Assembly: GCA_000004985.1 (NCBI GenBank)
Contig: GG739299.1
From: Naegleria gruberi
Taxonomy: Eukaryota
Direction: 5' to 3' (one strand)
Length of the DNA stretch: 1,130 nt
The translations under genes and the position numbers were made by a program. The notes under the pieces are model-generated. The model made no database searches. It was not told the origin of the DNA and saw nothing but the letters and a program-made list of their open reading frames with translations. Shown piece after piece: positions 926 to 957 of this stretch (its first letter is position 1; each line of letters opens with the position of its first letter).

Positions 926-957
926 CTGGTAAAAAGGTGAAAACCTTTTTTACCCCC
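926..957 (+). other. Internal transcribed spacer 1 (ITS1), only ~30 nt long.
   Basis: It lies between the canonical 18S 3' terminus (..ggatcattt, ending ~925) and the first 5.8S-homologous bases (aaactctgtgcaatgg.., from ~958). The boundaries are uncertain by about 5 nt. Confidence 0.75.
928..954 (+). repeat. Inverted repeat / hairpin that makes up almost all of ITS1. The stem pairs ggtaaaaagg with ccttttt(t)acc, with one T bulge, around a loop tgaaaa.
   Basis: Direct reading: positions 928-937 are ggtaaaaagg. Positions 944-954 are ccttttttacc, the reverse complement plus one extra T. The intervening 6 nt are tgaaaa. Confidence 0.8.

Follow-up and report, generated by a model that had tools for sequence, protein, structure and literature searches.

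The window, by which we mean the whole 1,130-nt stretch of DNA that was analysed, contains the 3′ half of an 18S (SSU) rRNA gene, a very short ITS1, a 5.8S rRNA gene, and the start of ITS2. Rfam cmscan matched SSU_rRNA_eukarya at positions 1-925 (permissive thresholds; 833 bits), covering model positions 938-1831 and reaching the last position of the model, and matched 5_8S_rRNA at 959-1103 (84 bits) over the entire model, 1-154. The SSU part of the window takes 925 nt to span those model positions and is expanded at about 430-500. Because the SSU match ends at 925 and the 5.8S match begins at 959, both on the + strand, ITS1 occupies 926-958 and is 33 nt long, the mature rRNA ends being those derived from the Rfam models. 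A sequence-only reading of this DNA had taken 926-957 to be an ITS1 of about 30 nt; the identity and approximate length of the spacer are both borne out, and the covariance models place the 18S and 5.8S ends within one base of the boundaries proposed there. The features of the window are as follows.

1-925, + strand: 3′ half of the 18S (SSU) rRNA gene, Naegleria type (Rfam; 99.8% identity to metagenome contig L031)
670-689, + strand: primer Nae3-F site CAAACACCGTTATGACAGGG, an exact match to a published N. fowleri 18S primer (PMC3736494, Table 1)
905-925, + strand: 18S 3′ end GAACCTGCGTAGGGATCATTT, identical to the Naegleria/vahlkampfiid ITS forward primer
926-958, + strand: ITS1, 33 nt (Rfam boundaries; same boundaries and length in PMC3167841)
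928-954, + strand: ITS1 hairpin, with 5′ arm 928-938, GAAA loop 939-942, 3′ arm 943-945 plus 947-954, and a bulged U946
955-958, + strand: unpaired 3′ tail of ITS1, variable in length and sequence among relatives
959-1103, + strand: 5.8S rRNA gene (Rfam 5_8S_rRNA)
1104-1130, + strand: start of ITS2, conserved in the close clade; the "175-bp 5.8S" of the Naegleria literature includes 1104-1130
1122-1130, + strand: CTGGTAAAA, an exact copy of ITS1 926-934 found by repeat search, which past the window continues as CTGGTAAAAGGTG (seen in L031)

JGI metagenome contigs were scanned for the unusual 18S 3′ motif GTGAACCTGCGTAGGGATCATT, which returned 44 loci, and the window was then searched against these loci with BLASTN; the motif had no match in the viral contigs scanned. 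Nine contigs were at least 99% identical to the window across the 18S, ITS1, 5.8S, and ITS2 start, the closest relative named above among them, and eight further contigs were 94.9-97.7% identical, making 17 contigs at 94.9-99.8% identity, followed by loci that were related more distantly, at 70-78%. At two sites the window differs from all of its close relatives: it has an A at 784 and lacks a C near position 23. Position 784 (motif CCGCCCGTC) is C in all 39 loci that cover the site, and it corresponds to C1402 of E. coli 16S rRNA, which lies in the decoding centre. These two differences are probably sequencing errors or the mark of a rare rDNA copy.

The assignment of the window to Naegleria is based on primer sites, the intron protein of a relative, and ITS lengths. 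The ITS forward primer matched at 905-925, whose sequence is printed in 20 papers on Naegleria and Vahlkampfiidae, also amplifies other vahlkampfiids and is by itself family-level evidence. The Nae3-F site is accompanied by the complement of the Nae3 reverse primer at 833-852, with two mismatches, and the pair spans 183 bp (primers from PMC3736494). The intron-bearing part of the SSU gene lies outside the window, and the twin-ribozyme intron was seen in the relatives L031, L001, and L025, where Rfam detected the GIR1 lariat-capping ribozyme within the SSU introns at 183-203 bits (L031 14046-14242, − strand; L025 3155-3363, + strand; L001 5720-5917, − strand). In L001, which is 97.4% identical to the window, the intron ORF encodes a His-Cys box endonuclease (Pfam PF05551) that is 100% identical to N. 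andersoni UniRef Q25535, followed at 82-85% by the proteins of N. italica, N. philippinensis, and N. gruberi; among the other homologues were many metagenome His-Cys box endonucleases at 36-85% identity. The same contig has a 35-nt ITS1 and a 5.8S one base shorter than that of the window, which parallels the published 5.8S lengths of 174 bp in N. andersoni vs. 175 bp (PMC3167841). Naegleria rDNA is carried on a multicopy circular plasmid of ~14 kb, with an optional Nae.S516 twin-ribozyme intron (GIR1, GIR2, and a His-Cys box endonuclease) in the SSU (PMC1464144). The two ends of L001 (contig JACCDN010942333.1, 14,161 nt) overlap exactly over 127 nt, and the LSU continues from one to the other, which fits a 14,034-nt circle, although a tandem repeat gives the same signature; the contig is probably a complete Naegleria rDNA plasmid (CERE) from a metagenome. 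We are thus highly confident that the spacer is an ordinary Naegleria ITS1, from the rDNA unit of a species in the N. gruberi-like group (Heterolobosea, Vahlkampfiidae), 33 nt long and bearing a hairpin, with a processing mechanism that we infer below. Nucleomorph, parabasalid, and diplomonad origins, each an early candidate, were dropped on the primer matches and the N. andersoni endonuclease match.

An ITS1 of 33 bp has been published for N. laresi, N. philippinensis, N. gruberi, N. australiensis, N. clarki, N. schusteri, N. italica, and N. galeacystis, and one of 38 bp for N. pussardi, with the 5.8S given as 175 bp in most Naegleria (PMC3167841). The amplicon coordinates of that study begin ITS1 at base 22, directly after the 21-nt primer, so that its boundary is the same as that of Rfam. 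The Naegleria spp. of the De Jonckheere and Pelandakis typing scheme share with the window the primer site, the start of ITS1 right after GGATCATTT, and the length of 33, and the layout of their 5.8S and ITS2 is compatible. ITS1-5.8S-ITS2 is the standard species marker in vahlkampfiids (PMC10100766, a study that drew on 442 ITS entries). Since 33 bp has been published for most Naegleria with the same boundaries, the short ITS1 is an already known character of the genus, used routinely in species typing. N. fowleri and N. lovaniensis have a longer ITS1, of 41-86+ bp. Vahlkampfia avara, of the same family and with the same primer, resembles the window in its very short ITS1 (ITS1 28 bp, 5.8S 145 bp, and ITS2 162 bp; PMC3167841, Table 4) but belongs to another genus, and the 18S and ITS1 length of the window and the introns of its relatives point to Naegleria.

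Spacer lengths in the metagenome loci were obtained with Rfam and with an nhmmer profile of the 5.8S made from four sequences whose limits had been set by Rfam; the profile gave the same ITS1 lengths as Rfam where both exist. ITS1 in the Naegleria-like clade measures 33, 33, 34, 34, 35, 37, 38, and 40 nt, and in other loci carrying the 18S 3′ motif it measures 89, 115, 117, 155-158, 166, 170, 176, 312, 406, 456, and 478-479 nt. As the motif-bearing loci reach an ITS1 of 479 nt, ITS1 length varies more than tenfold among carriers of the motif. The comparison of ITS1 length in related taxa that had been proposed from the letters alone therefore sets 33-40 nt in the close clade against 89-479 nt in distant loci, and ITS1 is short and constrained in length specifically in the Naegleria-like clade. 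The Naegleria-like contigs have ITS2 lengths of 126-472 nt.

Two of the more distant loci have features of their own. In L017, 78% identical to the window (1866-2193, − strand, and 6323-6634), ITS1 measures 312 nt and the 5.8S 166 nt, and the LSU contains a group I intron. L028, at 74% identity, has an ITS1 of 39 nt and spans positions 1-8452 of contig Ga0306906_1001226, where a 127-nt terminal overlap leaves a unit of only 8,325 nt; only about 750 nt lie between the LSU end and the SSU start, and the LSU contains at least two group I intron matches. L028 is an unusually compact, heterolobosean-like rDNA unit.

Diplomonads (Giardia) and microsporidia have spacers of a few tens of nt between the SSU and the next rRNA, and the sequence-only reading had likened the window to reduced or fast-evolving lineages of the diplomonad kind, with the caution that the boundaries might be misassigned or the 5.8S fused to the LSU as in microsporidia. 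Apart from that caution and the small size of the spacer, we found no evidence for misassigned boundaries, a fused 5.8S-LSU, or a diplomonad-type reduced rDNA. Diplomonads and microsporidia differ from the present case in having reduced rRNAs, and microsporidia lack a separate 5.8S, whereas here a full-size 18S, a separate 5.8S, an ITS2, and an LSU are found. The SSU of the relative L038 is 2,024 nt long, not the about 1.45-1.55 kb of a shortened diplomonad-type SSU, and the short ITS1 is accordingly no part of a generally reduced rDNA. The full 5.8S model is matched in the window, and in the near-identical L031 a separate LSU starts 147 nt past the Rfam end of the 5.8S, that is, after an ITS2 of 147 nt, which excludes the microsporidian-like fusion. 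With the Naegleria markers added, this whole set of alternatives is exceedingly improbable. The likeness to diplomonads likewise gives way to a free-living Naegleria with a full-size 18S and an ITS1 whose 33-bp length was published long ago (PMC3167841).

The 3′ end of the 5.8S, GUUAGAG-U-GCUAG, can pair with the LSU 5′ end of L031, CUGGC-CUCUAAU. This predicted pairing argues that the mature 5.8S ends near 1104, and together with the Rfam model it suggests a mature 5.8S of about 145-150 nt, vs. the 175 bp of the literature. The ~30 nt that follow the Rfam end of the 5.8S (window 1104-1130; L031 11578-11608, − strand) are conserved among variants that share at least 96% identity with the window; in the 94.9% group they have diverged, and more quickly than the core of the 5.8S.

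Folding of the 33-mer gave a single hairpin that takes up bases 928-954, nearly the whole of ITS1, as had been proposed from the sequence. The layout is two unpaired nt, an A/U-rich stem of 11 bp with a GAAA cap, and a 4-nt tail abutting the 5.8S; positions 928-938 pair with 943-945 and 947-954 around the GAAA tetraloop at 939-942, and U946 is bulged. The arms and loop originally recognized (ggtaaaaagg, 928-937; tgaaaa, 938-943; ccttttttacc, 944-954) are all present, and folding refines them to the 11 bp and the GAAA loop. The hairpin folds at −10.9 kcal/mol, whereas shuffled sequences average −5.1 (z = −2.85; 3 of 200 shuffles equally good), and the identical hairpin was recovered when the spacer was folded with 95 nt of context. 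For an A/T-rich 33-mer the fold energy of the window alone is a moderate signal, and the comparative evidence for the hairpin is stronger.

That evidence comes from a small sample of eight distinct ITS1 variants of 33-40 nt, all from closely related rDNAs of the Naegleria-like metagenome clade. A MAFFT alignment of the variants ignores stem indels, and base pairs were tabulated from the fold of each variant. All eight fold to the same hairpin, starting at ITS1 nt 1-3, with 11-14 bp and z-scores of −2.5 to −4.9, and the GAAA loop is found in seven of them. In the alignment GGTAAAA (928-934) is invariant. Compared with the window, L001 shows U-G in place of U-A at two pairs and has lost the bulge, and in L041 a G-C pair at the stem base has become G-U. 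In L010 two inner pairs are altered on both sides (G-C to A-U and U-A to C-G) with the GAAA loop retained, and in the L040 group the two arms carry matching insertions, UUUGG/CCAAA, with GUAAAA as the loop; clear both-sided changes are confined to two of the variants. The unpaired bases are free to vary, both in the 0-2 nt 5′ of the stem (C/A/U, U/C) and in the sequence and length of the 3-7 nt tail (CCCA, CCCAA, CCUUUAA, AUUCA, AUUCUCU, AAAACC, and UAC). Because the eight variants keep the stem while its flanks vary freely, the hairpin is, as judged from predicted folds, the only conserved feature of the spacer across these variants.

Conservation of this kind might also arise without any specific role for the hairpin. 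The spacer would then simply be of minimal length, its self-complementarity would have come from slippage of A-runs and T-runs followed by drift, and processing would proceed through the mature rRNA ends and trans factors. The stem is largely an A-run opposite a U-run, and the length variation among the variants falls mostly within those runs (A5-8/U4-7), so that replication slippage and weak selection could produce much of the stem pattern. The fold of the window is only moderately better than its shuffles, and L028, the other heterolobosean-like rDNA with a short ITS1, has no significant hairpin in its 39 nt (z = −0.73), from which it follows that a hairpin is no general requirement of a short ITS1. 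Slippage and drift are, however, harder to reconcile with the G-C pairs at the base and top of the stem, which are kept or compensated in all eight variants, or with the complementary inserts gained in both arms of the L040 group. They would not lead one to expect a stem that holds while its unpaired flanks change freely in sequence and length, nor an ITS1 held within 33-40 nt in contigs whose ITS2 varies several hundred nt in length. On balance we regard an absence of any specific role as a possible but less favored account.

A different arrangement is suggested by the start of ITS2, which contains a near-copy of the ITS1 5′ arm (CTGGTAAAAGGTG in L031). The repeat, formed by 926-934 and by 1122-1130 and beyond, is exact over 9 nt and extends to 13 nt with one indel. 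Were the ITS1 3′ arm to pair with this near-copy, a processing stem would bracket the 5.8S in a bacterial- or archaeal-like manner. The near-copy is conserved in most close variants, and in L041 both partners differ from the window, the ITS2 copy being TAGTGAAAGG and the ITS1 3′ arm ending in TTTTTACT, in such a way that a G-C pair would be maintained as A-U. In L010 and the L025 group, however, the ITS1 arms have changed and the ITS2 segment has no matching change, so that there is no consistent covariation; the energy of the ITS1-ITS2 duplex is no better than that of shuffled ITS1 (221 of 300 shuffles as good), and we estimate that chance alone would give about two exact 9-mer repeats in a sequence of 1,130 nt. 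A duplex between ITS1 and 400 nt of the 5′ ETS was also no better than with shuffled ITS1 (37 of 300 as good). The 5′ ETS-ITS1 processing stem was rejected on its duplex energy, and the ITS1-ITS2 stem on its duplex energy and the covariation missing from L010 and L025; a stem bracketing the 5.8S is very unlikely.

A local hairpin that would serve processing is the reading we develop here. Yeast has the same gene order and end products as Naegleria, and its ITS1 runs to hundreds of nt, in which A2 and A3 are distinct sites (sites D, A2, A3, and B1), whereas the 33 nt of Naegleria have room for one small hairpin only. Substrates of yeast Rnt1 (RNase III) have an AGNN tetraloop on a stem of at least about 14-16 bp, and these Rnt1-type features are absent from the ITS1 hairpin, with its GAAA loop and 11-bp stem. 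Because 33 nt are too short for separate A2-like and A3-like sites with their surrounding structure, we infer that a single endonucleolytic event probably separates 18S from 5.8S. The cut might be of the Nob1 type and fall at the 18S 3′ end, 2 nt away from the base of the stem, or it might be one made in or beside the hairpin; what is left of the spacer would then be trimmed off by a 5′→3′ exonuclease as far as the 5.8S 5′ end. The hairpin would most likely be a compact structural or recognition element that folds the spacer away from the flanking rRNA ends and positions those ends for the processing enzymes; a role in cleavage or recognition, first suggested by the sequence-only reading, would fit its being the only conserved feature of ITS1. 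By analogy, a single-cut route is plausible given that yeast can bypass ITS1 cleavage: there 5.8S can be made without cleavage inside ITS1, the whole spacer being removed 5′ exonucleolytically (PMC8268776).

Given that the length of the Naegleria ITS1 is a published character, the addition made here is a small one, namely that among species-level variants nothing in the spacer is conserved except a tetraloop hairpin. In the literature library searched, no paper was found that has the sequence or a description of the ITS1 hairpin, Naegleria ITS1 being treated there as a marker of length and sequence, and the conserved tetraloop hairpin is possibly a minor detail that has gone undescribed. It offers a concrete, testable candidate for the minimal element that a non-parasitic eukaryote might use to process its ITS1. 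A stronger proposition, which we put forward tentatively and think may well prove wrong, is that the GAAA-capped hairpin is the sole cis-acting element needed for 18S/5.8S separation in Naegleria and that the spacer is a natural minimal ITS1. Were this so, a free-living eukaryote with a full ribosome-biogenesis toolkit could do without separate A2/A3-type sites, and Naegleria would be a convenient system in which to study the minimal requirements of ITS1.
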